Assembly: GCF_000020025.1 (NCBI RefSeq)
Contig: NC_010628.1
Coordinates: 6,570,001 to 6,602,000 of the forward strand
Reading direction: 5' to 3'
Source of the DNA: Nostoc punctiforme PCC 73102
Lineage (GTDB): Bacteria > Cyanobacteriota > Cyanobacteriia > Cyanobacteriales > Nostocaceae
Length of the DNA: 32,000 nucleotides
The position numbers were made by a program, and so were the translations under genes. This document shows positions 8,309 through 32,000 of the stretch, one piece after another (the stretch's first letter is position 1; each line of letters begins with the position of its first letter). A model generated the notes under the pieces. It saw only the letters and a list, made by a program, of their open reading frames with translations. It ran no database searches and was not told the origin of the DNA.

Positions 8309-8351
8309 GTTTCAGTTAAATCAGAAATGTAAACGAGCTATCTTTGGAAAA

Positions 8352-9114: not shown

Positions 9115-9117
9115 AAT

Positions 9118-10025: not shown

Positions 10026-10286
10026 GTGATTTATTTTTACGGATGCAAATTAAAAGATTTTTAGCTTATGAGCATGAGCATGGACAAACGGAATCGTAAT
10101 CCGCATAAGTAAAGAATTTACAATATCTGAAGTTTTGACTTCCTCATTCCTTAGAGATAAAGCAATTCCTAGCAAATACTGATATTTAGCTTTGATTAAT
10201 CTTTATACAGAGTGATGAAATAAAGTTATGAAGATGCTATTAGAGTACGGCAGAATTTAGCTAACATCTCTGTGAACAAGACTTGG

Positions 10287-10438
10287 CTAAAATCCCCTTT
10301 GATTTTTGTTCGTGCAGCGTGGCGTAGCCATACTTACTTGCGTGTGAAGACAAGAGGCAAGATGAAGAGGCAATAGGCAATAGGAAAGAAAGCTTTTTGA
10401 GTTGTATGGAGTTTTTTCAAAAATCAAATATGAGTCTT
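10287..10438 (+). repeat. MITE-like dispersed repeat, copy b (approximate ends)
   Basis: CTTTGATTTTTGTTCGTGCAGCGTGGCGTAGCCATACTTACTTGCGTG ... GAGTTTTTTCAAAAATCAAATATGAGTCTT. It matches copies a and c. The 62-aa track ORF at 10287-10475 lies on it and is discounted. Confidence 0.6.
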
Positions 10439-10509
10439 GTAGTTTAAATATTTGTATATTTTTGATTGATTGCAAGTTGACTAACAGACTCTGTTAGCCA
10501 ACTAAACCA

Positions 10510-12252: not shown

Positions 12253-12815
12253 TTAAAGCAACGCTATGACTTTTTGCTCATTGCTGCTTTTAATAGCTGC
12301 TTCTATAATCCGCATTACATTAATTCCGTCTTCGGCAGTAACAGTAACTGGCTGATTATCAACAATAGATTTATATACCGCGTCGTAATAGCCTAAATAA
12401 CTGCCCTGTGAGCTTTTTACTTTTTCCCGAATTACTTTTGTGTCTTTTTCTGTATGCAGCAAGCCATATTCACTTTCTGGCTCTGTATACCAATCAAGTG
12501 TTGTTCTGCTTCTTTGACTGTTGTGGTAAATGCTTTTTCTACCACTACATGCTTGTCTGCCAATAAAGCCTGTTTAGTATAATCGTAATGTGTATAAGTT
12601 GGTGTATTTACCAACACTAGAATTACTCGCTCGTCGGCTAGCAATGCTTCCAAAGAAGGATAGCTTTTTACTTTCGGATAATCTTCCTGTATAAGATTTT
12701 TGCTTCTTTCCCAAGAGCCTGCTAATTGAAAACCGGGATGCAAATTAATAAACGGCGCATGAAATACCCTACCAGACAAACCATAAGAACAAAGAGCCGT
12801 ATTGAGAGTTTCCAT
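12253..12815 (-). pseudogene. Gfo/Idh/MocA-family oxidoreductase remnant (internal deletion plus frame change)
   Basis: An N-terminal Rossmann part (..VLVNTPTYTHYDYTKQALLADKHVVVEKAFTTTVKEAEQ) and a typical C-terminal end (..YDAVYKSIVDNQPVTVTAEDGINVMRIIEAAIKSSNEQKVIAL) lie in different frames. They are only about 560 bp apart, and the roughly 150-aa middle of the family is missing. Confidence 0.7.
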
Positions 12816-14616: not shown

Positions 14617-15615
14617 TTACCGTCTGGAACGTCTACGCAATCGATCAATCATTACTGCCAAAATAATTACTAGTCCTTTGACGACTAGTTGCCAGAAGTA
14701 AGATAGGTTCAACAAGGTTAAACCGTTGTTGAGAATAGCAATGATTAATGCACCTAAAAGAGTGCCGCCAATGGTACCAATACCACCTGTAAAGCTGGTT
14801 CCACCAAGAATAACAGCTGCGATCGCATCTAATTCGTAACCTTGACCCAATATGCCACTGGCACTATATAGACGGCTGGCGCTCATGATTCCTCCTAAGC
14901 CTGCCAGTAATCCGCTAATACCATAGACAAATAGCAAGACACGATTAACTTTAATCCCAGTTAATCTGGCTGCCCGTTCGTTACCTCCTACGGCATATAT
15001 CTGCACTCCTAAAACAGTTTGCCGCAGCACAAACCAGCTAGCGATTACGGTCAGTAGGGCAATGATTACTAACCACGGCAGAGGCCCGACGTAACTATTA
15101 CCCACCCAAGCAAAATTGATATCTCGGTTAATCAGTGTTGTACCCTTCGCAATCAGAAATGCCACACCCCGCAAGGCTGTAAGTGAACCTAACGTCACAA
15201 TAAAAGGTGGCACATCCAAGAAGGTGATGAGAGCGCCGTTGACTAAGCCTAAAAGCAATCCTGCCAACAATGCAGCAGGTACAGCCGCCCAACTTAAAGC
15301 CGGCAATAGCGATACCAGCAGTCCAACTACGGCAGAAACGGCCAATATTGACCCAACTGATAGGTCAATACCTCCGGTGAGAATTACAAAGGTCATTCCT
15401 GTCGCCAGCACAATATTGATTGATGCCTGACGCAAGATATTGACGATGTTACCGCCGGTGAGAAAGTTGGGAGAAAGGAATGCAAATAAGATGCAGATAA
15501 TTACTAGGATTGGCAGAATACCAGCAACTTCCAGCAGAGTGCTGATTGATTTCCGGTTGCGAGCTGCGGAATTGTTGGCTGATTTATTGATAGGCGGTCT
15601 GACTGTCTGACTCAT
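14617..15615 (-). CDS. Sugar ABC transporter permease (RbsC/FrtC-like)
   Basis: 332-aa polytopic ORF. 4-nt overlap with the upstream ATPase gene. Typical monosaccharide (CUT2) permease composition. Confidence 0.88.
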
Positions 15616-17444: not shown

Positions 17445-18467
17445 CTATTTCCAGCCTTTTTCTGTGCCGACGTTATCTTTTGTGATCAGCTTTACTGGAA
17501 TTAAAATGGTGGGATTAGTAGGTTTTTTCCCATTCAAAATGTCGTTTCCAACCTGAACTGCTTTTTCGGCCATCCCTCGCGGATTTTGAGTAGCGGTTGC
17601 AGCATATATACTATCTTTAGCTGCGATCGCAGTGATTGCTTCTGGCGCACCATCAACCCCGACAATAAAAAAATCTTTACGTTGTGCTTGGTTAGCTGCT
17701 AGTTCTGCACCAACTCCACTCGGATCGTTGATGGCAAAAACTGCATCAATTTTTGGGAAGGTGGTGAGCAAATCAGTCATAACTCTCAGTCCTCCATCCC
17801 TGCTACCTTCTGCATTCTGGTTTTTGGAGAGGATTTTGATATCGGGATATTTGGACAGTACACTCTCGCAGCCACTAACTCGTTGAATCACCGAGTCTAC
17901 TGGTGGGCCATTAACTATTACTACATTGCCTTTACCTTTGAGGCGATCGGCAATATATTTACAACTAACTTCTCCAGCTTGGACATTATTAGTAGTGATG
18001 GTGGCATCCACGCCTCCCTCAGCACCAGTATCTACCGCAATGACAATTCTACCCGCTTGTTTCGCTTTTTCAATCGCTGGTTTAATGCCACTTTTATCAG
18101 CAGCATTGACGATAATAATGTCAGTATTGGAAGCAGTGAAATTTTCAATTTGATTGGATTGTTGATTCAGATCGTAAGCACTGGAAACTACAGTTACATT
18201 GACATTATTACCCCCAATTTTCTTGGCTTCTGCCTCAGTTGCTTGTCCCATGAGAACGAAGAAAGGGTTACTTAAATCGCCAACTGTGAAGGCAACGGAT
18301 CGTAACTTTGAATTCCCAGTGGCAGTTTTTGTTTCTGCACTAGTATTTGTAACGGGTTTTGTATCGGGGTTAGTAGCACTGTTGTTATCGGGAGAAGCAT
18401 TTGTACAGCCGACAACTCCACCACTGATGATACCTAGTATGCTAGCTGCGATCGCAATTCTTTTCAT
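17445..18467 (-). CDS. Sugar ABC transporter substrate-binding lipoprotein (type I periplasmic binding protein, RbsB/FrtA-like), paralogue 1
   Basis: 340-aa ORF. Lipobox GGVVGC. Collinear with and highly similar to the adjacent 331-aa paralogue. Confidence 0.88.
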   Translation of the reverse strand: MKRIAIAASILGIISGGVVGCTNASPDNNSATNPDTKPVTNTSAETKTATGNSKLRSVAFTVGDLSNPFFVLMGQATEAEAKKIGGNNVNVTVVSSAYDLNQQSNQIENFTASNTDIIIVNAADKSGIKPAIEKAKQAGRIVIAVDTGAEGGVDATITTNNVQAGEVSCKYIADRLKGKGNVVIVNGPPVDSVIQRVSGCESVLSKYPDIKILSKNQNAEGSRDGGLRVMTDLLTTFPKIDAVFAINDPSGVGAELAANQAQRKDFFIVGVDGAPEAITAIAAKDSIYAATATQNPRGMAEKAVQVGNDILNGKKPTNPTILIPVKLITKDNVGTEKGWK

Positions 18468-18505: not shown

Positions 18506-19501
18506 TTACCAGCCTTTGTAGCTGCTGAGGTTATCTCTAGTAACCAAGTTGACTGGAATCAGAATGTCAGGTGACTCAGGTTTGTTACCCTGGATGATAT
18601 CGTTGCCAATCTGAACCGCTTTTTCAGCCATCCCTGCGGGATTTTGAGCCGCAGTTGCAGCAAATACACCATCTTTGTCTTCCATTGCTTTGGTTGCATC
18701 TGGCGAACCGTCAACCCCAACAATAAAAAATTCTTTGCGTTTTGCTTGTCTTGCGGCTAAGTCTGCACCTACACCGCTTTGATCGTTCGTGGCAAAAACG
18801 GCATCTATTTTGGGAAAGGTTGTAAGTAAATCACTCATTACTCTCAAACCTCCATCCCTTGTCCCTTCAGCGTTTTGGTCTTTAGAGATGAGTTTGATAT
18901 CAGGATATTTGGCTAATGACTTTTCACAACCACTGACTCGCTGATTGATTGAATCCATCGGCGTACCGTTGAGGATGACTACACTACCTTGACCTTTGAT
19001 GCGATCGGCAATATATTGACAAGCAACTTCACCAGCTTGGGTATTGTTGGAGCTAATCATTGCATCTACGTCTGCATCAACGGCTGAATCTACGGCAATG
19101 ACAATCTTACCTGCCAGCCTTGCTTGGTCAATTACTGGCTTAACTCCTTTTTTATCAACAGCGCTGAGGATAATTAAATCAGTATTTGCAGCAGTAAAAT
19201 TTTCGATTTGGTTGCTTTGTTGGTTCAAATCAAAGCCACTGGAAACCGCATTAACTCTAATATTACCGCCAATTCTCTTAGCTTCTATCTCCGCACCCTT
19301 TTGCACTGCATTATAAAAAGGGTTTCCCAAGTCACCCAAGGCGACACCGATTGTTTGTAATTTTCTACTTGGACTATTAACTGTAGTCTCTAAACTAGTG
19401 TTGGTAGCAGTATTAGTAACAGAATTGTTATTTTGAGCGCTATTTGTGCAACCAACAACAGTCAAACTTAATATGCCAACTATGAGCGAAAGTGTCTTCA
19501 T
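18506..19501 (-). CDS. Sugar ABC transporter substrate-binding lipoprotein, paralogue 2
   Basis: 331-aa ORF. Lipobox LTVVGC. It shares blocks with paralogue 1 (NQQSNQIENFTA.NTD, QAGEV.C.YIADR.KG.G.VVI.NG.P.DS..QRVSGCE, YPDIK..SK.QNAEG.RDGGLRVM.DLLTTFPKIDAVFA.ND). Confidence 0.88.
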   Translation of the reverse strand: MKTLSLIVGILSLTVVGCTNSAQNNNSVTNTATNTSLETTVNSPSRKLQTIGVALGDLGNPFYNAVQKGAEIEAKRIGGNIRVNAVSSGFDLNQQSNQIENFTAANTDLIILSAVDKKGVKPVIDQARLAGKIVIAVDSAVDADVDAMISSNNTQAGEVACQYIADRIKGQGSVVILNGTPMDSINQRVSGCEKSLAKYPDIKLISKDQNAEGTRDGGLRVMSDLLTTFPKIDAVFATNDQSGVGADLAARQAKRKEFFIVGVDGSPDATKAMEDKDGVFAATAAQNPAGMAEKAVQIGNDIIQGNKPESPDILIPVNLVTRDNLSSYKGW

Positions 19502-20057: not shown

Positions 20058-20954
20058 TTAAAATTTTAACGTTGCGGGTAAATATTTAGCTACTAAATCT
20101 TCGTAGTATGGTCTTAACTTTTGCCAATCGGGAGGAGTAGGATTTTTTGAATACAAATCATAAGGATTGAATAATTTAACCCATTTAAACATTTCGCGAT
20201 CGTGATTATCCATCAAATGCTTATATGCGTTTTCGCGGTGTTGAGGATAAAATGAGTGATAGCGAAGCATATACAATGCAGGTTCAGGTAAATAGTTTTT
20301 CATCATCTGATAAAAATATTCATCGTGACCCCATGAAATATGTACATTAATCAATCCACAATTTGGTTCGTAAATACCATATTTAGTGTTGTAATTGGGA
20401 TTATTGTAATCAGGATTTTCTTGGAAAAATTCTGAAAAAACAATTTTATCAGAGAATGCACAACCTACAGGATAAGTATCACCGACGGTAGCCCATTGAG
20501 GCTCACCAAATAGACAAAGTACCTTCCCCATATCGTGAAAGAAGCCGGTAAGTACCATCCAATCAGGATGACCATCGGCGCGTATGGCTTCTGATGTTTG
20601 CAATAGATGCTGTAACTGATCCATCTCTGTATCGGGATCTGAATCATCTACTAATTGATTCAAAAATTCAACTGCATCCCAAACAGACATTTCTTTTTTA
20701 TCAAACTTGAGAAAATTCTTTTCTTTCTCAAGGACAAAATTATATGTTTGATTAATATGATTTAACCGATAAAATTCTTTTACCGTTTCTCTGGTAGGCG
20801 TTTCATAATTTCTGTACTCTTGAGTAGTTTTACCTTCTTTAACTATGCTATGTGGATCGGGGTAGCGATTAAGTAAGTCTTCTTCCCACTCTTCTAACGA
20901 ATGTAACGGATTGTATTGAGCTTGTTTGATAAAATTCTGGAGAATTTGAGACAT
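20058..20954 (-). CDS. myo-Inositol oxygenase (MIOX family, HD-type di-iron oxygenase)
   Basis: 298-aa ORF, collinear with animal MIOX as I recall it. Motifs: DDSDPD, GFFHDMGKVLCLFGEPQWATVGDTYPVGC, SWGHDEYFYQ, LRYHSFYP, KLRPYYEDL. Confidence 0.9.
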   Translation of the reverse strand: MSQILQNFIKQAQYNPLHSLEEWEEDLLNRYPDPHSIVKEGKTTQEYRNYETPTRETVKEFYRLNHINQTYNFVLEKEKNFLKFDKKEMSVWDAVEFLNQLVDDSDPDTEMDQLQHLLQTSEAIRADGHPDWMVLTGFFHDMGKVLCLFGEPQWATVGDTYPVGCAFSDKIVFSEFFQENPDYNNPNYNTKYGIYEPNCGLINVHISWGHDEYFYQMMKNYLPEPALYMLRYHSFYPQHRENAYKHLMDNHDREMFKWVKLFNPYDLYSKNPTPPDWQKLRPYYEDLVAKYLPATLKF

Positions 20955-21002
20955 ATCTTGTTACTCGTCGATATTGATTTTTTAAATCGGGTTTTCGCAA
21001 CA

Positions 21003-21128
21003 TTATGCACAGGTGTGCAAAACCTGTTTTTGACTTATTTTTATTTTTGCACACGTGTGCAAAACTGTGTGTTAAGTTTCTTTTCTATTTGTACATTTGT
21101 ATACAAAACACTTTGTTAAATATTTTTT
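21003..21128. promoter_or_regulatory. Three phased 42-bp repeat units upstream of the MIOX gene, each with a palindromic operator: TGCACAGGTGTGCA (21006-21019), TGCACACGTGTGCA (21048-21061), and the degenerate TGTACATTTGTATACA (21090-21105)
   Basis: Read directly. The perfect 14-mer recurs at 23379-23392 in front of the LacI-family gene. The central CG is typical of LacI/GalR operators. Confidence 0.6.
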
Positions 21129-21214
21129 ACAATCGACTCGGAGCAGAATTAGCTAAAAGATTGATAAAGTACACGAAATAGAGAACGCAGATTTCAGATT
21201 AAGTACTTATGCTT

Positions 21215-21347
21215 ATAGGAATCTGCTTTGATTTCTGTTCGCGCAGCGTGGCGTAGCCATACTAATTTAGCTTACAAGGCAAAAAGCAAAGCGAAAGAAG
21301 GCTATTTTTGTTGTATTGAGTTTTTTCAAAAATCAAATATTAGTCCT
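21215..21347 (+). repeat. MITE-like dispersed repeat, copy c (approximate ends)
   Basis: ATAGGAATCTGCTTTGATTTCTGTTCGCGCAGCGTGGCGTAGCCATACTA ... GAGTTTTTTCAAAAATCAAATATTAGTCCT. It matches copies a and b. Confidence 0.6.
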
Positions 21348-21600
21348 ATATGTATTGAGCCGAGATACATGTAAAAACCTGCATTCCGAGTCTGGTAATG
21401 CCTGCTCTATCTACGTTGTAACGATTTTGACTCACCATTTTATAAGGCTTTCCGCACACTGGATAAAATTTATACTTTGTGTACACTATTAACTCGCCAC
21501 AGTGAGCGCAATTAGCGCGTAGTTGTGTCCCGCAAAGATAACAATACTTAGCTTGAGCAGTATAATAAATTGTTAGGCCCTGCTGCATCTCTTTTACCAT
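21346..21600 (-). CDS. Small zinc-ribbon-like ORF, possibly a gene remnant
   Basis: 84-aa ORF with CYLCG...CAHCG pairs and a degenerate third pair (FYPVCGKPY). Its 3' end runs into MITE copy c. Its ATG is only 7 bp from the divergent SnoaL-like start. Confidence 0.3.
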   Translation of the reverse strand: MVKEMQQGLTIYYTAQAKYCYLCGTQLRANCAHCGELIVYTKYKFYPVCGKPYKMVSQNRYNVDRAGITRLGMQVFTCISAQYI

Positions 21601-21607
21601 ACCTCTT

Positions 21608-21988
21608 ATGTCAGAGCAACCTGCATCAGAAATCGAACTGCTCCGTGCGGCTTACGCGGCCTTCAACGCGCGAGACATTGACGCGGCCCTTGCCCTCATG
21701 ACTCCGGACGTGGCTTGGCCGAAAGCGTTCAAAGGCGGTTTTGTCCGTGGGACTGAAGAAGTTCGCGCTTACTGGACGGAGCAATGGAGCGAGATCAATC
21801 CGCACGTCGAGCCGGTTTCCTTTTACTCGGAGGAGGCCGGACGCATTTTGGTCGATGTGCATCAGGTCGTGCGTGACTTGGTTGGAGGAGTTCTTGCCGA
21901 TGAACACGTGGGTCATCGATTCACCCTTGAGCAGGGGTTGATTCAAGTCATGGAAGTCTGTCCACTTCCATCGTCCATCCCAAATTGA
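21608..21988 (+). CDS. SnoaL-like / NTF2-fold protein (DUF4440-like)
   Basis: 126-aa ORF. N-terminus IELLRAAYAAFNARDIDAALALMTPDVAW.. is typical of SnoaL-like polyketide-cyclase-fold proteins. GC content is strikingly higher than in the flanks. Confidence 0.7.
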   Translation: MSEQPASEIELLRAAYAAFNARDIDAALALMTPDVAWPKAFKGGFVRGTEEVRAYWTEQWSEINPHVEPVSFYSEEAGRILVDVHQVVRDLVGGVLADEHVGHRFTLEQGLIQVMEVCPLPSSIPN

Positions 21989-22124
21989 CGGTAAACTAAA
22001 ACGGTTGAAAGCATTAATAATATCCCGAATCGCTGCCTCAATTTTCGGCGTACTGAATATGGCGACTCAATGCCCTATAGACAATTCATCTGTTGGATCG
22101 ATTTTTGAATAAATAACGTTATTC

Positions 22125-22228
22125 ACACATTAGACATCTCCGAAAAAGAATGTAGAGACGCAGCAGTGCTACGTCTCTACAAGGTTTCTGTGTAACGCAT
22201 ATTTAATTTCTGGAGATGTCTATTAGTA
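22125..22228. repeat. Nested-hairpin short repeat element (outer arms TAGACATCTCC/GGAGATGTCTA, inner arms GTAGAGACG/CGTCTCTAC)
   Basis: Outer arms at 22131-22141 and 22212-22222. Inner arms at 22152-22160 and 22172-22180. The GTAGAGACG...CGTCTCTAC type resembles Nostoc intergenic repeats. Confidence 0.5.
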
Positions 22229-22270
22229 AAATCTATGTTAAATTTTTTGTCCGCTTGACTTTGAGGAATG

Positions 22271-22594
22271 TTACGTTGTCAATTCTATGGTGGATGAATG
22301 CTTGACAATATTAGCTAACTCTTGAAGTTGTTTTACTGCTTCTGCACCCTCCAACTTCATTAATTCGCGATCGTCCCATAATTCCATCCATGTAATTCCG
22401 TAATCAGACACTACAAAACGGATCAGATGCTTTTCTCGCAGGCTAACCATAAATGAAGCACTCTTCATTTGGTCGCCGCACGTATAACATGAGGCAGAAT
22501 ACCCACGCCGCTCAAGAATAATTGTCAAGGCTTGTAAGTTCATTACCAAGTCTTGAACGAATTCTCGATGTTGTTGCGCTAATCTTAGAAACAC
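22271..22594 (-). CDS. Hypothetical protein
   Basis: 107-aa ORF on the same strand as gntK and downstream of it. I recognised no motif. The start may be the internal MNLQAL. Confidence 0.35.
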   Translation of the reverse strand: MFLRLAQQHREFVQDLVMNLQALTIILERRGYSASCYTCGDQMKSASFMVSLREKHLIRFVVSDYGITWMELWDDRELMKLEGAEAVKQLQELANIVKHSSTIELTT

Positions 22595-22731
22595 TAGTTT
22601 TCTCCTACCACTACTGTGAGGTGGTTCCTTTTAAAACTTCTTTAGACTTACATCCGACGTATTTAGTTGCCAAAAGTTCGTGTTTTCTTAGAGACGTGAT
22701 TAATCTTAATCTTATGGTTTTAACCAATCAG

Positions 22732-23241
22732 CTAAAGTCTCAAAGCCGTTCTAATATTCTGGACAATGATCTGGGGTGGTTGTGCGACATCTATAGATAT
22801 GGTGTCTAATGGTTCTTCAAGAGTATCAAACTGGCTATTGAGAAGTTTTTCGCTCATGTAATGATTGCTACGCTCTTGCAACCGCATTTGAATTAACTCA
22901 TAAGACCCTTTGAGGTAAACTAGCTTAATGCGATCGCTCTTGGCGTTGGTGCAGCGATCGCTATCCGATACCAAAAATTGCCGATAGCTGTCTTTTAAAG
23001 CCGAACACGCCAGCACTACATTTTTATTTTCTTGCAGCCAATGTTTGATGGCTGTTTGCAAATCTTGCAACCAAGGCATCCTGTCAGCTTCAGTCAACGG
23101 GATACCGCGCCGCATTTTATCAACATTCTCTGGTGAGTGGAAACTATCAGCGTCACTAAACTCCCAGCTTAAAGAGTCTGCTAGCAGTTTTCCTATGGTG
23201 GTTTTACCAGAACCAGATACACCCATGACGATAATAATCAT
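22732..23241 (-). CDS. gntK: Gluconokinase (GntK/IdnK family)
   Basis: 169-aa ORF. P-loop GVSGSGKTT. Motifs F.DADSFH, DRMPWL, ACSALK..YR and YLKG are collinear with E. coli GntK. Confidence 0.9.
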   Translation of the reverse strand: MIIIVMGVSGSGKTTIGKLLADSLSWEFSDADSFHSPENVDKMRRGIPLTEADRMPWLQDLQTAIKHWLQENKNVVLACSALKDSYRQFLVSDSDRCTNAKSDRIKLVYLKGSYELIQMRLQERSNHYMSEKLLNSQFDTLEEPLDTISIDVAQPPQIIVQNIRTALRL

Positions 23242-23341
23242 ATTTTTTGAAGAAAAGCTAAGTTATTGAGGTAAAGGACAGGAGGCAGGAAGTAAGACTA
23301 TTGAATTTTTGTATGCAAAATGTGAGTTGTATTAAAATCTC

Positions 23342-23392
23342 TTGACAAATAACCATTATTTTCTATAATACATACAACTGCACACGTGTGCA
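23342..23392 (+). promoter_or_regulatory. Near-consensus sigma-70-type promoter (TTGACA 23342-23347, 16-nt spacer, TATAAT 23364-23369), followed by the operator TGCACACGTGTGCA (23379-23392)
   Basis: Read directly. The operator lies about 10 nt downstream of the -10 element and 25 nt upstream of the regulator ATG. This is the position expected for autorepression. Confidence 0.6.
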
Positions 23393-23416
23393 TTATTTTA
23401 AAATCTAAACTAAAAA

Positions 23417-24445
23417 ATGAATAAACGAAGAATTTCAATTGAAGATATTGCTCGGAGAGCAGGTGTATCTCATTCCACAGTTTCACGTGCTTTGCGGGAT
23501 AATGCTCTCATTAGCCCGAAAGTACGAGAAGAAATTAAGCAACTGGCGCAGGAGATGAACTATGTGCCAAATGCTATAGCTCAAAGTTTGCAAAATAAAC
23601 GTACTAATACCATTGGTGTAGTAGTAACTTCCATTGCAGATCCCTTTTTTGCTGAAGTAGTAGACGGTATTGAACAGATAGCCAGACCAGCCGGATTGAG
23701 TGTTTTGTTAAGTGCTTCACACCGAGATTTGGAGCAGGAAATAGCAGCTATTGATACCTTTCATCGCCGCAGAGTAGACGGAATCTTAGTAGCCGACTCA
23801 CGAATTAGCAAACAACATACAAAGCAACTAACGCAAATTGCTGTGCCAACAGTTCTGATTAACAGCCAGACTGAAGATCAATCCGAAATACTTCACTCAG
23901 TAGCAATAGACGATCGCTTAGGCGCTAGATTAGCAACAGAGCATTTAATAAGTTTGGGACACACCAGCATTGGTTATTTGGGTGTAAGCGATCGCAGCAG
24001 GTCAAACCACCAGCGCCTAGAAGGATATAAAATGGCTCTTGCTGAAGCTGGTTTACCACAAAATCCTGATTGGGTTGCAATTAGTGACGAATATGATACC
24101 AGAATCAGCGATGTCGCCACCGGGCAAAATATGCTATCTAAACTATTGATTGCTGAGGTAACAGGCATCTTTTGTTACAACGATATGGTGGCAGTTGGCG
24201 CTCTTTTAGCTTGCCAAGAACTAGGTATTTTAGTGCCACGAAATTTAAGCCTGGTTGGATTTGATGGTATTGCTTTAGGTAGTTACGTTACACCGGCACT
24301 TACAACAGTCAGCCAGCCGATGTTAGAAATTGGTGGCTATGCCATGCAAATGTTAATCGATTTATTAGCAGACAAAGCTGTGGAAAACCGCGTTTTATCT
24401 CCTTTTCTCGTAGAGCGTGGTAGTAGTGCCAGATTAATAAAGTAA
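23417..24445 (+). CDS. LacI/GalR-family transcriptional regulator
   Basis: 342-aa ORF. N-terminal HTH ISIEDIARRAGVSHSTVSRALRD and YVPNAIAQSLQ. The C-terminal part resembles a periplasmic-binding-protein-like sugar-binding core. Confidence 0.92.
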   Translation: MNKRRISIEDIARRAGVSHSTVSRALRDNALISPKVREEIKQLAQEMNYVPNAIAQSLQNKRTNTIGVVVTSIADPFFAEVVDGIEQIARPAGLSVLLSASHRDLEQEIAAIDTFHRRRVDGILVADSRISKQHTKQLTQIAVPTVLINSQTEDQSEILHSVAIDDRLGARLATEHLISLGHTSIGYLGVSDRSRSNHQRLEGYKMALAEAGLPQNPDWVAISDEYDTRISDVATGQNMLSKLLIAEVTGIFCYNDMVAVGALLACQELGILVPRNLSLVGFDGIALGSYVTPALTTVSQPMLEIGGYAMQMLIDLLADKAVENRVLSPFLVERGSSARLIK

Positions 24446-24596
24446 TTTGAAATCGTGTCTATCTTGAAAACTGTAGTTTTTGTGTAATTAGACTAAACCT
24501 ACAAGAGAAAATGTTTCAAAATGGACAACTCTTTCCTTGTGTGTAAGACAAATTATTTACACTCAGCAACACTAAAAATTTTAACCAAACAAAAAT

Positions 24597-26015
24597 ATGT
24601 TAACTAAAAAACCGGTTTTATCTCCCGATCGCTGCTTTTCTCCAGAACCAGTTCAAAGACGACTAGCTCATCAATTCTTTGACAGCATATCTGCATTACC
24701 TTTGGTCTGCCCACACGGCCACGTAGATCCAGCCCTATTAGCTAATCCAGCAGCCCGTTTTGGTTCACCAACCGAATTATTTATTATCCCTGACCACTAC
24801 ATTTTGCGGATGCTTTATAGTCGGGGCGTTCCTTTGGAAGCTTTAGGCATACCTACTCGTGATGCACCAACAGAAACTGACCATCGGAAAATCTGGCAAT
24901 TGTTCGCCGAACATTTTTATTTATTCCAAGGTACTCCATCTGGGTTGTGGCTCAAAGACGAACTAACTAATGTCTTTGGGGTGGATGAAGCATTAAATTC
25001 TCGTAATGCTGGACGTATCTATGATTATCTAGAAGGTTTATTAGCCTTACCTAAGTTTTCCCCACGTGCTTTATTCAAACGCTTTAACATTGAAGTGCTT
25101 TGTACTACCGATGCAGCCAGTGATAACCTAGAGAATCAGCGATCACTCCACGAAGAAGGTTTCACTCAAATTAGACCGACTTTTCGACCAGATGCAGTAG
25201 TTAACCTAGATGCTCCTGGTTGGCGGGAAAATCTCACCAAATTGGAAAGCAGTATCGGTAGAGAAATTAGCAGTTATGCTACTTTTGTGCAAGCTTTAGA
25301 AGAACGTCGGGCTTTCTTTAAAAAAATGGGTGCAACAGCTACCGATCAAGGTGCAGCTACGCCTTATACCACAAGTCTTTCTGACCAAGAAGCAGAAGCT
25401 ATCTTTGCCAGAGCATTAATCGGCAAACTGAATCCAGGAGATGTAGAGCAGTTTACCGGTCATATTTTCATGGAAATGGCTCGGATGAGTGTAGAAGATG
25501 GTTTGGTGATGCAAATGCATTGTGGTGTTATGCGTAACCATAACCCAGCTCTGTTTGAGAGATTTGGATCTGATAAAGGTGCTGATATTCCCCTCAATAT
25601 AGAATGGACTCGAAATCTGCACCCATTATTGTCATCTTATGGGAACAATCAGCGCTTCCGTTTAATTATTTTTGGTATGGATGAAAGCACTTATAGCCGA
25701 GAGATGGCTCCGCTAGCTGGTCATTATCCTACTATATTGCTCGGGCCGCCTTGGTGGTTTCACGACAGCGTAAATGGCATGGAACGCTACTTCAATCAGG
25801 TAATGGAAACTGCCGGAATTTATAATACTGCTGGGTTCAATGATGATACCCGAGCTTTCGTTTCTATTCCAGCCCGTCATAATGTTTGGCGGCGGGTAGC
25901 TTGTAATTGGTTAGCTGGATTAGTAACACGGGGATTAGTTGACGAAGAGGAAGGGTATGATATGGCCCGCGCTTTAGCTTACGACCTTGCTAAAAGTGCT
26001 TACAAATTAGACTAA
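24597..26015 (+). CDS. uxaC: Glucuronate isomerase (uronate isomerase, UxaC family)
   Basis: 472-aa ORF. Motifs: N-terminal ..LVCPHGHVDP, central MQMHCGVMRNHN, C-terminal LLGPPWWFHDSVNGMERYF ... FNDDTRAFVSIPARH. Confidence 0.85.
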   Translation: MLTKKPVLSPDRCFSPEPVQRRLAHQFFDSISALPLVCPHGHVDPALLANPAARFGSPTELFIIPDHYILRMLYSRGVPLEALGIPTRDAPTETDHRKIWQLFAEHFYLFQGTPSGLWLKDELTNVFGVDEALNSRNAGRIYDYLEGLLALPKFSPRALFKRFNIEVLCTTDAASDNLENQRSLHEEGFTQIRPTFRPDAVVNLDAPGWRENLTKLESSIGREISSYATFVQALEERRAFFKKMGATATDQGAATPYTTSLSDQEAEAIFARALIGKLNPGDVEQFTGHIFMEMARMSVEDGLVMQMHCGVMRNHNPALFERFGSDKGADIPLNIEWTRNLHPLLSSYGNNQRFRLIIFGMDESTYSREMAPLAGHYPTILLGPPWWFHDSVNGMERYFNQVMETAGIYNTAGFNDDTRAFVSIPARHNVWRRVACNWLAGLVTRGLVDEEEGYDMARALAYDLAKSAYKLD

Positions 26016-26084
26016 TACAAATCAAGCTACTAGAATTAGCCCTTTCAAGGTGAATTGGAAAATCTCTTTTTTTCTCTCAGCGCT

Positions 26085-26145
26085 CTCTGTGTCTCTGCGG
26101 TTTAAAAGAAATTTATTTAACCACAGAGGTGTAGAGGACACAGAG
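26085..26145. repeat. Nostoc-type hairpin repeat (CTCTGTGTCTCTGCGGTT ... AACCACAGAGGTGTAGAGGACACAGAG) downstream of uxaC
   Basis: Imperfect inverted repeat, read directly. A single-arm relative (CAGCGTCTCTGCGGTT) occurs near 12985-13000. Confidence 0.5.
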
Positions 26146-26248
26146 TAAAGAGCTTAAACAGGAATTTATCAACCAAAATTTTTACCCACCTTCAAAGGGC
26201 TAGTCCTTATACTGATTTCTTTAATTACGAATTACGAATTGAAATAAG

Positions 26249-27085
26249 ATGTCAGATTTGATTTTAAATAAACTTTTTAGCCTAAAAGATCGGGTAGCAG
26301 TAGTCACAGGCGGTTCTGGTGTACTTGGTGGAGCAATGGCAAAGGGTTTAGCCCTTGCTGGAGCGCGGGTAGTCGTTCTAGGCCGCAATGAAGCACGGGC
26401 GAGTGCAGTAGTAAGTGATATTACTGCTAACGGTGGAGAAAGTATGGCTGTACTGGCAGATATTAGCGATCGCTCCCAATTAGAAATCGCTAGGGAAGCT
26501 ATTATACAGCGTTGGGATCAGATAGACATCTTGGTAAACATGGCCGGTGGTAATATTCCTGCTGCCACAATTACCCCTGATGCCACTATTTTTGATATGC
26601 CACATACAGCTTTTGAGGAAGTAGTTAGCCTCAACTTACTCGGTACTCTATTGCCTAGCCAAGTTTTTGGTCAAGCAATGGTCGAAAGAAATCAGCCATC
26701 TGGTTGTATTGTCAATATTTCTTCTATGTCTGCCATTCGGGCGATCAGCCGCGTGGTTGGCTACTCAGCCGCTAAAGCCGGGATAGATAACTTTACTCGT
26801 TGGTTAGCCGTCGAACTTGCCCAAAAGTATGGGGATGGAATGCGAGTAAATGCGATCGCGCCAGGTTTCTTTATTGGGGAACAAAATCGAGATTTACTCC
26901 TAAATGCAGATGGCAGTTTGACCGAACGCGGGCAAAAAATTATCGAGCATACCCCCGCCGGACGTTTCGGCAAACCGGATGAATTACTCAGTACCTTGAT
27001 TTGGTTATGCAGTTCTGGTTCTAGTTTCGTCAACGGGGTAGTTATACCAGTAGACGGTGGGTTCAGTATCTACAGTGGAGTTTAA
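26249..27085 (+). CDS. Short-chain dehydrogenase/reductase; candidate fructuronate reductase / D-mannonate oxidoreductase (Bacillus UxuB/YjmF-like)
   Basis: 278-aa ORF. Cofactor motif VTGGSGVLGG. Catalytic S...YSAAK. The function is inferred from size, type and context. The SDR family call is secure (about 0.9); the substrate call is about 0.5. Confidence 0.8.
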   Translation: MSDLILNKLFSLKDRVAVVTGGSGVLGGAMAKGLALAGARVVVLGRNEARASAVVSDITANGGESMAVLADISDRSQLEIAREAIIQRWDQIDILVNMAGGNIPAATITPDATIFDMPHTAFEEVVSLNLLGTLLPSQVFGQAMVERNQPSGCIVNISSMSAIRAISRVVGYSAAKAGIDNFTRWLAVELAQKYGDGMRVNAIAPGFFIGEQNRDLLLNADGSLTERGQKIIEHTPAGRFGKPDELLSTLIWLCSSGSSFVNGVVIPVDGGFSIYSGV

Positions 27086-27087
27086 TC

Positions 27088-28350
27088 ATGTATTCACTGG
27101 CTGTAAATAACGGAACACTTTCCGACGAGCAAATTTCTGGGCTAGTTCATCAAGCTTTGGCAGACCGTCAGTTAGATGGACAGCGTATTTTAATATTAAT
27201 TCCAGATGGCACTCGTACTGCTCCCATCCCTCAAATATTTCGATTGCTGCATCAGGAGTTGGGTAAAAGAGTTCCGGCTCTAGATTTTTTGATCGCTCTG
27301 GGTACACATAATCCTATGAGTGAAGAACAGATTAATCACCTAGTGGGGGTGACACCAAAAGAGCGAGAGACAACCTTTAAAAAAGTTCGCATATTTAACC
27401 ACCTGTGGAATGAGCCAGATACTTTTATTTCCTGTGGAGTAATTTCGGCAGATGAGATAGCAGAAATTAGCCGAGGAATGCTACATCAGTCCGTTGAAGT
27501 CCGGGTTAACAAGCTTGTAACACAGTACGATCTAATAATGATTTGCGGTCCTGTATTTCCCCACGAAGTTGTCGGTTTCTCTGGTGGAAATAAATACTTT
27601 TTTCCCGGTATTGGGGGTCAGGAAGTAATTGATATATCTCACTGGTTGGGCGCTTTAATAACCAGTTACGAAATCATTGGTACATCGGGAATAACACCAG
27701 TTCGGCGCTTGATTAACCGAGCCGCTAACCTAATTTCTACACCGAAACTTTGCTTGGCGATGGTGGTTGCACCTAAAACAAATCAGCTAGCAGGACTTTA
27801 CATAGATAAACCAGAGTCAGCCTGGGAAGCCGCCGCAAAATTATCCGACAAACTGCATATTACTTATGTAGATCGGTCTTTTAAACAAGTGCTTTCAGTA
27901 ATGCCCGAAATGTATGATGACATTTGGACAGCCGCGAAAGGAATGTACAAGCTAGAGCCAGTAGTAGCTGACGGAGGCGAAGTAATTATATATGCCCCTC
28001 ACATTACTGAGTTTAGCTACACACACGGTGAAATTCTGTCTCAAATTGGCTATCATGTGCGGGATTATTTCCTCAAGCAGTGGGATAAATTTCAAGCCTA
28101 TCCCGGTGGAGTGCTGGCTCATAGTACTCACTTAAAAGGTATGGGTACATTTGATTTTACAGAAGGGGAAAAAGCGCGGATTCGCGTCACTTTAGCCACT
28201 GGTATTTCTGCTGAACGCTGTGCTGCTCATAATTTAAACTATCGCGATCCAGCTACCATTAGACCCACAGAATGGGCTAACCGTGAGGATGAAGGTATCT
28301 TACTTGTGCCGAAATCTGGTGAAATATTATACCGTTTAATACAAGCGTAG
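27088..28350 (+). CDS. LarA-family (DUF2088, lactate-racemase-like) nickel-pincer-dependent 2-hydroxyacid racemase/epimerase; candidate D-mannonate/D-gluconate 2-epimerase
   Basis: 420-aa ORF whose start lies 2 nt after the SDR stop. Motifs: IPDGTR, LGTHNP, FPHEVVGFSGGNKYFFPG, and DISH 16 residues after the Lys. Confidence 0.8.
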   Translation: MYSLAVNNGTLSDEQISGLVHQALADRQLDGQRILILIPDGTRTAPIPQIFRLLHQELGKRVPALDFLIALGTHNPMSEEQINHLVGVTPKERETTFKKVRIFNHLWNEPDTFISCGVISADEIAEISRGMLHQSVEVRVNKLVTQYDLIMICGPVFPHEVVGFSGGNKYFFPGIGGQEVIDISHWLGALITSYEIIGTSGITPVRRLINRAANLISTPKLCLAMVVAPKTNQLAGLYIDKPESAWEAAAKLSDKLHITYVDRSFKQVLSVMPEMYDDIWTAAKGMYKLEPVVADGGEVIIYAPHITEFSYTHGEILSQIGYHVRDYFLKQWDKFQAYPGGVLAHSTHLKGMGTFDFTEGEKARIRVTLATGISAERCAAHNLNYRDPATIRPTEWANREDEGILLVPKSGEILYRLIQA

Positions 28351-28546: not shown

Positions 28547-28686
28547 TGTACACATACAATAAAGTTCTTTACTGGCAGCGCCTGAAACACTGGTTATTGC
28601 GTTGCCAATTTTTTGTTAAAGTTCTTTACTGAAGAAAATGCTAGCCGCAATACAATGTCAGCCACAAACAATAAAGTTCTTTACTG
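28547..28686. mobile_element. Tn7-like transposon end: terminal TGTACACA plus three direct TnsB-type binding repeats
   Basis: The 15-mer TAAAGTTCTTTACTG is perfect at 28560-28574, 28617-28631 and 28672-28686 (spacing 57 and 55 bp). The outer and inner copies extend to 22 nt (CA(T/A)ACAATAAAGTTCTTTACTG). The array starts 6 nt after a 5'-TGT terminus at 28547. Confidence 0.75.
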
Positions 28687-28793
28687 TCACAAGTTCGTAT
28701 GTACTAATTGATATAGGTTGATTTTTATTCTTGGAGAACACTCACTCACCACAAAATATAAGGTTTTAAGCTTGATCAATAACCTTTTTTTAT

Positions 28794-30725
28794 TTATATC
28801 AGCGAATTTAAAACTTCTAAAGCAGCTGCGATCGCTTCCTTGACCAAAGGTAACTTTCTCGTTTCTTTGCGTAGGCTTGCACGACGAACTAGTTGCCACT
28901 TTTGAGGAGTAATATTCTCTTGATGAAAAGTATTTGCTGCCCACTGCACTCTTCTCACCGCAAACTCTTCTCTGGTTTCTGCCAACTCATCTAAAATCTT
29001 TGCGGTCATAGGTAATCTGTTTAGATGTCTTTTTACCCAAGCGCTTGCAGGATGATCGAGGAAATTAGCGATCGCTGTCCTGCTAATCCAAATTGGTCGA
29101 CTGGCATCTTGCTTCAAGCGCCGTGCAGCAACCTTTACTGCTTCCACCGTTTCAACATCTCGGTTATGCCAATCCACATTTAAAGTGCCATTATTTTTTA
29201 GTGGTGGCGGCAGATGCTTCAAAAGCCAATTTTTGTCGTATTTGTATAATTGACCATAGATTGCTGGGGCTTTACTTCGTAATTGTGTTCTTCCCGCATC
29301 AGGATTGGCTTCAATGGCCTCTAACCATTGCTTACGCCAGCTTTCGAGGATATCTGGAGCCTGAATAAATGAAAATACACGAGGCTTAAGTGAGGGGCAT
29401 AACTCAGTTGCTCTCGCCTTAGTATTAGGTCGGGGAAAGGTAAGCTTTAGTTTATCTGCTTGACGAAGCACTGTCTTCACTTGAACTCCTAGACATTGAC
29501 TAATCTCCTTAAGGGTAAGTGATGAGTCTTCCCAGAAAACTTTTAAAGATTCTTCCCAAACAGAACCATAAACCTTGATTTTTGAGAATCGAAATTGATC
29601 CTCTGGTGATTGATCCGCACCTATTCTAGAGTAAACAAAACCACAGCTACAAAAAAATGTACCAGTTGGTTTGCGACTTTCCTGGTTATATGTAATCAAA
29701 CATTCCTTTATCTGCGGTTTATTAAAATATTTACAAACAGGGTTAAGGCAGGGCCAGAGAGCATTACCGAATGCTTTTGGTGCTTCTTTTAATTCAAAAA
29801 ATTCTTGTGCTGTGTATCCTAAGAAGTGAATAAATAGCAGATGCCGTAGTGGATGGTGAACTCTTTTAGGGAAACGCACTAATTGAGCAAGCCAGTTATC
29901 ACGAATCTGCTCATCAAGTGGACATTGCAGCCAATTTAACACTTGGGAAGGGTAGTGATTTTTGAAGAGCCTCAATAATTCCTGAACACGAATCCTACCT
30001 GTGTAAGTGACTAACTCTGGATTGGTTTTTACCAAAGACAGGTATTTTTGATACAAAGCTTCTAAGCCAGGGACGAAGGGGCAATTATTCAAAAGCCAGT
30101 CTATATCTGTGGCAATTTTCAACAGAATTTTGTGATCAGGATTTAAGGGGTCTACTGGACGAAGAGATACTAATTGAGTTGCCTGTTCTAAAGAAGTAAA
30201 TTCAGATATGCGTCTACGATTGTGGGTTAATACAGCACTTTTCTCTAAAAAAACTCCATGATTGGAACAGACTTCAACACCAGGTAATTGATGAAGACGA
30301 TGCCAGTAGCACTCACCAAACTGCTTCTGATCATCTTCCATACACAATGGACAGAAGCGCAAATGAGAAGGCATCTCAATGAATCCAGCAACAATTCCCA
30401 AGCGTGTATGAATTTTTGAGCCATTATCACCGCACATATCCTGCCGAACTAATTGAAGTCGCTCTAGTGGCAGGAAAGGTCTATAAAAGGGTAATAAAGT
30501 GTGATTGTCTATGAAATCATCAACTGTGTAAGAATGTCCGGTGGGTAAAGCAGCAACAAATCTGTTCAATCTGCTTGGTAGATCAACAGTTGCGATCGCA
30601 TTTTTTGTTTGGAATAAATCTCTAACTACTGAAATTTGGCTAGGATAATACACTCTCTCTTGAAAGCGAGCGCAAACACTATATAACAATTCATTTGGGT
30701 AAGGATTAGGAAAGAAGCCAAGCAC
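28794..30725 (-). CDS. tniQ: TnsD-like target-site selector (TniQ-family N-terminal domain, two zinc-ribbon motifs, HTH, and a long TnsD-type C-terminal domain)
   Basis: 643-aa ORF. TniQ-type N-terminus FFPNPYPNELLYSVCARF. Zinc motifs CPLCMEDD..YWHRLHQLPGVEVCSNHG and CLNPVC...FFCSCG. HTH LKEISQCLGVQVKTVLRQ. Contains three HIP1 sites. Confidence 0.88.
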   Translation of the reverse strand: MLGFFPNPYPNELLYSVCARFQERVYYPSQISVVRDLFQTKNAIATVDLPSRLNRFVAALPTGHSYTVDDFIDNHTLLPFYRPFLPLERLQLVRQDMCGDNGSKIHTRLGIVAGFIEMPSHLRFCPLCMEDDQKQFGECYWHRLHQLPGVEVCSNHGVFLEKSAVLTHNRRRISEFTSLEQATQLVSLRPVDPLNPDHKILLKIATDIDWLLNNCPFVPGLEALYQKYLSLVKTNPELVTYTGRIRVQELLRLFKNHYPSQVLNWLQCPLDEQIRDNWLAQLVRFPKRVHHPLRHLLFIHFLGYTAQEFFELKEAPKAFGNALWPCLNPVCKYFNKPQIKECLITYNQESRKPTGTFFCSCGFVYSRIGADQSPEDQFRFSKIKVYGSVWEESLKVFWEDSSLTLKEISQCLGVQVKTVLRQADKLKLTFPRPNTKARATELCPSLKPRVFSFIQAPDILESWRKQWLEAIEANPDAGRTQLRSKAPAIYGQLYKYDKNWLLKHLPPPLKNNGTLNVDWHNRDVETVEAVKVAARRLKQDASRPIWISRTAIANFLDHPASAWVKRHLNRLPMTAKILDELAETREEFAVRRVQWAANTFHQENITPQKWQLVRRASLRKETRKLPLVKEAIAAALEVLNSLI

Positions 30726-30984
30726 AGCCCATATCCTTTTAAAAAATATAAAAATTCATCTTATCTCGTCAAACTTTTTAATGGTTAATTATTAAACACC
30801 ATTTGTATATTATTAGCACCTTTAAAAAACATATATTTTTATTTCAATAATTATAAAAAGTTACAATTTTAGGTATAGGATATTTCAAGTTTATAAAATA
30901 CAAAATAACCCATCTACGATGTCGTGAACTTTTCTATTGTAAAGGTAAAAATATGCTTTATTTACTTATAAAGTGCTGTATAAA

Positions 30985-32000
30985 CTATTTATTTGGCATT
31001 CTCCTTAACAAAGGTAATTTCAAATAACCTACCTGGCGCTCAATCGTCTCCTCACTAACACCAAGGTATTGAGCAATTTCTGTAAAATTCAATGCTCGAT
31101 TTTGCCATAACATTTTCAAAGCATATTCCCAGGCATAACCGTATTCTATTTTCTTTGTTGCTATTGGTACTTGATACTTATTAATTATATCAAAATCTCT
31201 GTTGAAAGAGACAAAATCACAAATACAGCAAAATTCAGTTACAGCTTTAGTGCTGTTACTATAGTCTGTATGTTGGTATTTATCCTTAATTAATAGCTGT
31301 TGAAAATATTCACCCCCTCGATTGATGCATGGACAATATTCTGTTCCAAAAGGCTTATACTTCAAAGAAGTCTTAAAAAAATATTCCACTGTAGATTCAA
31401 AAAAGATAATCAACAATAAATGACGTAAAGGATGTCTTATTTTGCCATCTAAAATAAACATGTCTATAAGCCAGTTACTATGTCTAGCAAAATCACATTG
31501 AAGCATTTTTAGAAATGGAGGAGAGTAGTATTCTCTAAAATCATTGATAAGTTTAGCTAACGATTTTTTATCTTTAAAATTAAACTCTCCATATTTTTTG
31601 TATAACAGTTTTATATAAATTTTACGTACAGAATCTCCAAAAAAAATGGCATTTGGATACTTTAGAAGCCAATCAACATTATGAGCTAATTGTATAAAAT
31701 ATTTTAAATTGACATCTGATAATTCTAAATAATTATTTATCTTGGTCTTTACTGCTTCTTCTGCTGAAACTAATCCACAATAGTGATGACCTGTTCCTAG
31801 CTCAGTTTTTTGTAGAATAATGTTATGTATTAGACAAACTTCGACTCCAGGAACTTGATGTATGCGATGCCAATAGCATTCACCAAATTGCTTTTATCTT
31901 CTAATATACATTGAGGACAAAAACGTAAATAATTCATATTTCTCATAAAATTTTCAAAACGATTTAAAGTAACTTCTGGATTATTTTGTTTTATTGCATC
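30985..32000 (-). pseudogene. tniQ: Second, shorter TniQ/TnsD-family paralogue. It is frameshifted and its N-terminus lies beyond the window.
   Basis: Hand translation in frame A (32000 to about 31893) gives DAIKQNNPEVTLNRFENFMRNMNYLRFCPQCILEDK. Frame B (31893 to 30985) gives KQFGECYWHRIHQVPGVEVCLIHNIIL...HPLRHLLLIIF...EIAQYLGVSEETIERQ...*. Together these are collinear with residues of about 95-430 of the 643-aa paralogue. An in-frame TAA lies at 31894-31896 of frame B. Confidence 0.75.

Follow-up and report, generated by a model that had tools for sequence, protein, structure and literature searches.

What do the enzymes encoded at a symbiosis locus of Nostoc make, and from which compound do they start? 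The question is raised by a 32,000-nucleotide stretch of the Nostoc punctiforme PCC 73102 genome (hereinafter the window), in which five enzyme genes lie around one LacI-family regulator gene. The window almost certainly carries the hrm (hormogonium-regulating) locus of symbiosis-type Nostoc, the genes by which symbiotic Nostoc stops motile filament formation inside its host. The locus, an object of study since 1997, is not new: hrmE, hrmK, hrmR, hrmI, hrmU and hrmA are its known parts, and its developmental role, the repression of hormogonia in symbiosis, is on record. Its biochemistry has been vague for about 25 years, and a 2021 review, in its remarks on these genes, gives hrmA as without a database homologue and the function of hrmE as unknown. 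We find that hrmA encodes a predicted nickel-pincer sugar-acid 2-epimerase of the GntE1 group, and that the five enzymes probably work as a chain leading from myo-inositol or D-glucuronate to 6-phosphogluconate.

Identity of the locus

The gene order of the window matches, one for one from oprB through the LarA homologue, the order given in the Fig. 6 legend of PMC5987646 (Gagunashvili and Andresson 2018), whose hrm map includes oprB, mviM, glcP and frtA1A2BC; the comparison is based on open reading frames (ORFs) and family matches. According to a statement in PMC8461463 (Pratte and Thiel 2021), Nostoc UCD121 has hrmA and hrmU on a contig of their own, and one of our loci (L005) is a UCD121 contig that opens with the short-chain dehydrogenase/reductase (SDR) gene followed by the LarA homologue, each with 97% identity to its counterpart in the window. 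The layout of L005 agrees with that statement, which makes hrmU and hrmA the SDR gene and the gene after it. Together, the matching order and the UCD121 statement identify the window as the hrm locus, whose core features are as follows.

20058-20954, minus strand: hrmE, myo-inositol oxygenase (MIOX); PF05153, 367 bits, profile positions 2-249 of 249
21003-21130, no strand assigned: hrmE control region; three phased units of 42-44 nt
22732-23241, minus strand: hrmK, GntK/IdnK-type gluconokinase; TIGR01313, 155 bits (cut-off 113.75); PDB matches 3T61 and 1KNQ, both gluconokinases
23342-23392, plus strand: hrmR promoter and palindrome; TTGACA-16-TATAAT, 12/12; palindrome at 23379-23392
23417-24445, plus strand: hrmR (= frtR), LacI-family repressor; PF00356 and PF13377; named in PMC5987646 and PMC8461463
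24597-26015, plus strand: hrmI, glucuronate isomerase UxaC; NF002794, 489 bits (cut-off 387)
26249-27085, plus strand: hrmU, SDR-type D-mannonate oxidoreductase (fructuronate reductase); NF006132, 394 bits (cut-off 281)
27088-28350, plus strand: hrmA, LarA-family protein; Lar_N domain match

All five enzymes and the LacI regulator named in the preliminary description are in place, the gluconokinase gene beside the regulator, and each family assignment holds at the profile level. The hrmE product matches mouse MIOX (2HUO) with E=3e-79, and the His/Asp motifs are all conserved, including the residues that we take to be the diiron ligands of the mouse enzyme (H98, H123, D124, H194, H220 and D253). 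An SDR of the gluconate 5-dehydrogenase or KduD type, named in the preliminary description as a different outcome for hrmU, is not what the profiles return: both of these models score below their own cut-offs, and the D-mannonate oxidoreductase model is passed. The reported coupling of hrmU to hrmA is read directly in the sequence, where TAA-tc-ATG at 27083-27090 joins the hrmU stop to the hrmA start.

HrmA as a predicted GntE-type epimerase

HrmA is predicted to be a nickel-pincer sugar-acid 2-epimerase of the GntE1 group. Its best PDB match, over the full length and with E=1e-61, is 4NAR, the GntE2 of Thermotoga maritima and a proven D-mannonate/D-gluconate 2-epimerase (Desguin 2020, PMC7583248). 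By blastp, it is 47% identical to GntE1 of Corynebacterium glutamicum (group 19), 35% identical to GntE2 (group 20) and 33% identical to a group-18 protein. The NCBIfam group-18 model gives 200 bits at a cut-off of 500, which places HrmA outside group 18.

The residue pattern points the same way. In LarA numbering, D72, H108, H174 and K298 are the catalytic residues and R75, K184 and H200 bind the cofactor (PMC7583248). HrmA D40, R43, H74, H159, K169, H185 and K284 align with GntE2 D38, R41, H73, H154, K164, H180 and K287; D40, H74, H159 and K284 make up the catalytic set, R43, K169 and H185 make up the cofactor-binding set, and all seven are invariant in 12 homologues. In the sequence alignment (not a structural one), HrmA E160, V161, A344 and H345 occupy the positions of LarA F175, F176, W358 and T359, and E, V, A and H at these positions are the GntE signature (PMC11770544, 2024). 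The AlphaFold model of HrmA, built from a 12-sequence alignment, is poor, with a mean pLDDT of 62 and values below 50 in the C-terminal domain.

A N. punctiforme protein is already present in the enzyme literature. An entry in Dataset S2 of PMC7583248 assigns Npun_F5335 to Group 19 with the putative function G2E2; the N-terminus of HrmA is identical to it as far as that dataset shows, and the 20-residue signature given there for Npun_F5335 fits the HrmA of the window. The D-gluconate/D-mannonate 2-epimerase activity that the preliminary description mentioned for the LarA family is documented: activity on mannonate was shown for GntE1 (Km 120 mM) and GntE2 (Km 17 mM) only (PMC7583248). In the literature that we searched, no paper combines a word beginning with "hormogoni-" with "lactate racemase", and the source records of the HrmA homologues never use the name HrmA.

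The cofactor genes larB, larC and larE do not occur within the window. In Synechocystis these three genes make the nickel-pincer nucleotide cofactor (Turmo et al. 2024, PMC11796402); they are widespread in cyanobacteria and functional there, although most cyanobacteria are without LarA-like proteins (PMC11796402).

A candidate operator common to the hrm enzyme genes

The palindrome TGCACACGTGTGCA, 14 bp long, has only three copies in the 32 kb, two exact ones at 21048 and 23379 and a third at 21006 with a single mismatch, which bears out its placement by the preliminary description both before the MIOX gene and in the divergent region between the regulator and gntK. None of 100 shuffles contained any match at up to one mismatch, and the occurrence of the palindrome is therefore far beyond chance; at three mismatches the search is uninformative, as 6 of 100 shuffles reached three matches.

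Around hrmR, a perfect sigma-70 promoter at 23342-23369 precedes the palindrome at 23379-23392 by nine bases, and this palindrome also overlaps the -35-like hexamer of a candidate divergent promoter for hrmK. Upstream of hrmE, the palindromes lie at 21006-21019 (one mismatch) and 21048-21061 (exact), and the third phased unit holds a degenerate copy at about 21090-21105. A simple pattern scan finds no terminator among hrmR, hrmI, hrmU and hrmA, in agreement with the term hrmRIUA operon as it is used in the 2021 review. Our model is that HrmR would bind TGCACACGTGTGCA as its operator at two places: the palindrome on the hrmR side would control hrmR-hrmI-hrmU-hrmA and probably the divergent hrmK, and the two phased palindromes upstream of hrmE would control hrmE and probably also frtA1A2BC-glcP behind it.

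This layout, in which two sites spaced by about 42 bp lie upstream of MIOX and a further one separates gntK from lacI, is kept in 11 other Nostocales loci (8 from Nostoc and one each from Tolypothrix bouteillei, Scytonema sp. UIC 10036 and Scytonema hofmannii). The gntK/lacI palindrome is kept in all related Nostocales loci that span the region, and a Mojavia locus with no MIOX in its flank has this palindrome only. Shared regulation of the hrm enzyme genes is thus supported at the level of conserved predicted sites.

The exact 14-mer is also found directly upstream of lacI in lacI-uxaE-SDR-larAH-gnd-pfkB operons of two metagenome-assembled genomes (MAGs), one from Chloroflexia and one labelled Syntrophothermus. 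It lies at 6603-6616 and 13793-13806 in locus L044 and at 2717-2730 and 9858-9871 in locus L058; in both, a second copy follows the pfkB kinase gene, and in L044 this copy precedes an ORF resembling zinc-dependent alcohol dehydrogenases and an IolG gene. The LacI regulators of both MAG loci share the segment VSHSTVSRAL of the helix-turn-helix region. These observations suggest that the regulator-operator pair is common to several phyla, and it has possibly moved together with the gene cluster.

Gene neighbourhoods of HrmA relatives

Relatives of HrmA occur in at least 596 species genomes. The neighbourhood counts below refer to the best 80 loci and to genes within 8 kb of the epimerase gene.

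HrmU-like SDR: 59/80 loci, usually directly upstream
Decarboxylating 6-phosphogluconate dehydrogenase (Gnd; TIGR00873, 788 bits): 28/80 loci
UxaC: 22/80 loci
UxaE: 22/80 loci
LacI regulator: 20/80 loci
IolG: 13/80 loci

The linkage of SDR and epimerase spans Chloroflexota, Acidobacteriota, Planctomycetota, Verrucomicrobiota and Actinomycetota. Of the contextual arguments for 6-phosphogluconate as the final fate of what this epimerase clade produces, the linkage to Gnd is the strongest. Among the 80 loci, MIOX and a GntK/IdnK-type kinase are linked to the epimerase only in Nostocales, where the full six-gene set is kept in 8 Nostoc loci, in Tolypothrix and in Scytonema sp. The picture that emerges is of a back end common to these loci, consisting of regulator, predicted fructuronate reductase and predicted epimerase, with a front end that varies by group: UxaE and IolG-type inositol genes in Chloroflexota and others, MIOX and UxaC in Nostocales.

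In Scytonema hofmannii (L087, 5438-15924), a cluster with the candidate operators is made up of hrmR, hrmK, a gene for a PAS sensor, hrmE and the frt genes, and hrmI, hrmU and hrmA are not found within 10 kb of this cluster. MIOX and gluconokinase therefore stay together even where the genes for the intermediate steps are located elsewhere or lacking.

MIOX itself is not the bacterial rarity for which the preliminary description took it, since a homologue search gave at least 8000 candidates. Among the matches listed, the nearest non-cyanobacterial proteins come from Bacteroidota, with 78-81% identity. The genes for these adjoin transporters or a LacI gene, and two of the Bacteroidota MIOX loci have no uronate or LarA genes within 10 kb.

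Three other partners of the epimerase gene, all uncharacterised, recur in other phyla (loci L005-L084): a 300-aa HAD-like protein at 17 loci, usually encoded directly upstream, a pyrophosphate-dependent phosphofructokinase-like protein at 10 loci and a KdgK-like PfkB kinase at 7 loci. None of the non-Nostocales epimerase loci that have one of these partners carries a GntK-type kinase.

A probable route to 6-phosphogluconate

Combining these observations, we consider it probable that the five enzymes form one chain, which would run once HrmR repression is lifted. HrmE would convert myo-inositol to D-glucuronate, HrmI would isomerise D-glucuronate to D-fructuronate and HrmU would reduce D-fructuronate to D-mannonate. 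HrmA, acting as a GntE-type enzyme with the nickel-pincer nucleotide cofactor, would then invert C2 and turn D-mannonate into D-gluconate, which HrmK would phosphorylate to 6-phosphogluconate for entry into the oxidative pentose phosphate pathway. From gene families and gene context we infer the substrates of the individual Nostoc enzymes, the sequence of the epimerase and kinase steps and the flow of carbon through the route. As a prediction the chain is well supported, since it fits the family assignments, the active-site signature of HrmA and the gene neighbourhoods of the relatives.

UxuA, KdgK and Eda, the absence of which had already been reported, are encoded neither by any ORF of the window nor in the 10-kb flanks of the Nostocales loci. 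In the window, the Pfam or NCBIfam scan took in almost every ORF of 100 aa or more; a sensor kinase (5649-7142), a response regulator (7139-7822) and some antisense ORFs were assessed by eye only.

The preliminary description had proposed the same route as a new one. Its enzyme logic stands; its novelty does not. The gene combination that it believed to be undescribed is the long-known hrm locus of N. punctiforme and relatives (PMC5987646, PMC8461463), and the branch from mannonate via gluconate to 6-phosphogluconate is the GntE route, proposed in 2012 according to the citing text and with its enzyme shown in 2020 (PMC7583248, PMC6978723). Measured against the searched literature, only the joined-up reading is new; descriptions already exist of the locus, of the epimerase family and of the GntE branch.

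Several points weigh against this route. HrmR is reported in PMC5987646, in the portion bearing on its effector, to respond to galacturonate, and a galacturonate effector would imply tagaturonate, not fructuronate; the hrm locus is without UxaE. For GntE1, the closest characterised relative of HrmA, the mannonate Km is 120 mM, and the authors of that study suspect another native substrate (PMC7583248). The locus has no hexuronate transporter and no proven inositol transporter, and the hrm-linked transporters are described, in the relevant passages of PMC5987646 and PMC8461463, as fructose and glucose systems. The frt binding proteins, the ATP-binding cassette (ABC) genes and the major facilitator superfamily (MFS) permease were considered as inositol transporters and dropped, since the literature names them frtA1A2BC and glcP.

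Alternative explanations

The explanation favoured by those who studied hrm, as summarised in PMC5987646, is the Meeks model, in which the hrm enzymes turn a host compound into a sugar-acid metabolite that blocks hormogonia; how much carbon is gained would then not matter, and the chain could end in a product other than 6-phosphogluconate. Reviews speak, in their accounts of hrmA, of its induction by host factors and host extracts, and PMC8461463, where it turns to these genes, calls hrmU and hrmA important in controlling the level of hormogonium production, both of which sit well with signal synthesis. A chain in which a 2-epimerase (HrmA) and a gluconokinase (HrmK) come last, however, ends in a central metabolite, and the same back end beside Gnd in the 28 of 80 loci, from non-symbiotic bacteria, is a catabolic arrangement. 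As a replacement for catabolism we therefore rate signal synthesis as rather unlikely; the two views could nevertheless be compatible, with an intermediate or the flux itself as the signal.

The last two steps might instead run in reverse, HrmK phosphorylating D-mannonate and HrmA epimerising 6-phospho-D-mannonate to 6-phosphogluconate. Just this order, a mannonate kinase followed by a 6-phosphomannonate 2-epimerase, was measured in Lactobacillus suebicus extracts, with the genes unidentified (Valk 2020, PMC6978723), and the high Km values of GntE1 (120 mM) and GntE2 (17 mM) leave room for a phosphorylated native substrate. The L. suebicus order remains a live alternative for hrm, albeit an unlikely one in our estimate: GntE2 reaches a turnover of 197 per second on free mannonate (PMC7583248), E. 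coli GntK is inactive on mannonate according to a citation in PMC6978723, and HrmK passes the GntK/IdnK model. Less likely still is that HrmA acts on a different sugar acid, such as altronate from galacturonate, L-gulonate/L-idonate or an aldarate, and converts no mannonate to gluconate. The authors of PMC7583248 do consider that group 19 may use a mannonate isomer or a uronic or aldaric acid, and the galacturonate-like effector reported for HrmR in PMC5987646 would agree with this. UxaC and an SDR that passes the D-mannonate oxidoreductase model, on the other hand, yield mannonate directly, and the gluconokinase in the same predicted regulon, together with Gnd beside the relatives, calls for gluconate or 6-phosphogluconate as the product. 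A route from glucuronate via L-gulonate, L-idonate and 5-ketogluconate to gluconate was rejected as well, because it leaves UxaC superfluous and the SDR fails the models that its 5-ketogluconate step calls for.

Implications for symbiosis and nickel

Few determinants of Nostoc-plant and Nostoc-lichen symbiosis have been defined genetically, and the hrm locus is among them. Two literatures have stood apart here, that on nickel-pincer enzymes, in which a N. punctiforme protein is already listed as a gluconate 2-epimerase, and that on symbiosis genetics. Joining them offers a full chain of enzymes and a small set of metabolites that are candidates for repressing hormogonia. We put forward, tentatively, that HrmA may be the missing enzyme that completes the hrm route from myo-inositol or glucuronate supplied by the host, and that the flux through it or a product formed after HrmA may be the hormogonium-repressing cue. 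Mutants in hrmU and hrmA are said to escape host-factor repression of hormogonia; if this holds, the cue would have to arise downstream of HrmA, as gluconate, 6-phosphogluconate, or pentose-phosphate flux and NADPH.

If this proposal is true, it would also provide a physiological use for the nickel-pincer nucleotide cofactor in cyanobacteria and a candidate client enzyme, most cyanobacteria with larB, larC and larE having no known one. Nickel supply and the lar genes would then be predicted to affect symbiotic competence.

Other features of the window

On the hrmE strand, the preliminary description had overlooked the frt ABC transporter, glcP and oprB, as well as the developmental role of the locus. 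These and the remaining features are as follows.

10510-12123, minus strand: oprB, carbohydrate-selective porin with SLH domain; PF04966, 134 bits; far end of the hrm-linked sugar-uptake block
12253-12815, minus strand: mviM pseudogene, Gfo/Idh/MocA type (inositol 2-dehydrogenase-like), broken into fragments 12432-12815 and 12253-12462
13116-14516, minus strand: glcP, MFS sugar-porter permease; TIGR00879, 356 bits (cut-off 238)
14617-15615, minus strand: frtC permease; PF02653
15612-17174, minus strand: frtB double ABC ATPase; PF00005 in two stretches; 4-bp overlap with frtC
17445-18467, minus strand: frtA2, RbsB-like CUT2 substrate-binding protein
18506-19501, minus strand: frtA1, RbsB-like CUT2 substrate-binding protein
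22151-22181, minus strand: terminator-like hairpin, strong, 14 pairs; end of the hrmK-DUF1815 unit
22271-22594, minus strand: DUF1815 gene; PF08844, 169 bits

The Fig. 6 legend of PMC5987646 opens its gene order with oprB, names mviM, marks pseudogenes with an asterisk and designates the ABC genes frtA1A2BC; in the Nostoc literature, glcP is termed a glucose permease (PMC5987646 and PMC8461463, in the parts bearing on it). The mviM remnants encode a 127-aa N-terminal and a 69-aa C-terminal piece, and NF008607 and TIGR04380 match the N-terminal part only. FrtA1 and FrtA2 are NF007936-like (124-128 bits), with 4RWE, an unlabelled sugar-binding protein, as best PDB match, and 8 Nostoc loci, Tolypothrix and two Scytonema loci keep their genes downstream of MIOX.

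The DUF1815 gene, which most Nostoc loci have between hrmE and hrmK, is probably the "unk" gene of the published hrm maps. In the stretch from the hrmE control region to this gene, at 21346-21988, the window has a SnoaL-like gene on the plus strand and a double zinc-ribbon ORF on the minus strand, which were seen only in contigs identical to the window strain; other Nostoc loci (L008, L010-L013) have extra palindrome-like sites in the hrmE-DUF1815 spacer instead.

The 233-bp spacer between hrmI and hrmU (26016-26248) contains an inverted repeat, ctctgtgtctctgcgg / cacagaggtgtagaggacacagag, and a short tandem repeat, aattacgaattacgaatt. The UCD121 contig bearing hrmU and hrmA starts within this spacer, which may explain the report of a separate contig for the two genes.

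A Tn7-like transposon with tnsA, tnsB, tnsC, tniQ, a TnsD fragment and tnsD is inserted about 200 bp downstream of hrmA. It lies in 28547-32000 of the window (tnsD 28794-30725, TnsD fragment 30985-31506) and in 2715-10874 of locus L001. Homology of UCD121 to the window ends near 28546, and the element is absent from the other Nostoc loci. TAAAGTTCTTTACTG occurs three times, at 28560, 28617 and 28672, and its copies look like transposase-binding end repeats. Farther away, the ORF at 8307-8984 encodes a protein, probably secreted, that contains four repeat units, nearly identical and about 45 aa long (PPRPDF.AAATKLGVSEQQLKDALGVP), and adjoins the two-component system at 5649-7822. An Rfam search of the window returned no RNA family.

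Comparison with known systems

The closest system is the published hrm locus itself, which, as far as the cited maps and accounts show, has the same genes in the same order in N. punctiforme ATCC 29133 (Cohen and Meeks 1997; Campbell, Wong and Meeks 2003) and has been drawn for lichen Nostoc (PMC5987646) and Azolla isolates (PMC8461463). The likeness extends to the linkage to oprB, mviM, glcP and frtA1A2BC and to the LacI repressor, for which the window has predicted sites at hrmR and hrmE. The window differs in strain details only, such as the mviM pseudogene, the SnoaL and zinc-ribbon genes between hrmE and DUF1815 and the Tn7-like element downstream of hrmA. In relation to frtRABC, a system for fructose transport in Anabaena variabilis (Ungerer 2008, as described in PMC8461463), HrmR is equated with FrtR, and the ABC genes behind hrmE are the frt genes; the hrm enzyme genes are, by the same description, lacking in A. 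variabilis.

Of the canonical isomerase pathway (UxaC-UxuB-UxuA-KdgK-Eda), the 32-kb window does not encode the UxuA/KdgK/Eda part. The Francisella glucuronate operon (F7308_1388-1396; PMC3479022) likewise combines MIOX with UxaC, mannonate oxidoreductase and a XylT-like MFS permease, but continues canonically via UxuA, KdgK and 2-keto-3-deoxy-6-phosphogluconate aldolase, where Nostoc has the predicted epimerase and gluconokinase instead. The galacturonate pathway of L. suebicus resembles the proposed chain in leading from mannonate to 6-phosphogluconate with one kinase and one 2-epimerase, bypassing 2-keto-3-deoxygluconate; it differs in its reverse step order, and no link to LarA is drawn there (PMC6978723).

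The proposed chain can be compared with the GntE route of Thermotoga. For this genus, gntE and gntK were proposed as a link leading from the hexuronate isomerase pathway to 6-phosphogluconate (Rodionova 2012, as cited in PMC7583248 and PMC6978723), and mannonate was then considered to feed into the pentose phosphate pathway probably in this way, once the epimerase activity of GntE had been shown (Desguin 2020, PMC7583248). The predicted hrm chain and T. maritima have in common a fructuronate reductase, a LarA-family mannonate/gluconate 2-epimerase and a gluconokinase leading to the pentose phosphate pathway. The two differ in epimerase group (group 20 for GntE2, at 35% identity, and group 19 for HrmA, at 47% identity to GntE1), in entry, which in hrm would be via MIOX and UxaC and in T. 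maritima is via pectin or UxaE, and in the hrm kinase being of the GntK/IdnK type. The window contains no gnd, and it does contain the hrmU SDR and hrmK gluconokinase genes with a candidate operator common to both. In the T. maritima route (UxuB-type SDR, GntE/TM0442, GntK, Gnd), the epimerase gene follows directly after the SDR gene, exactly as hrmA follows hrmU in the window.

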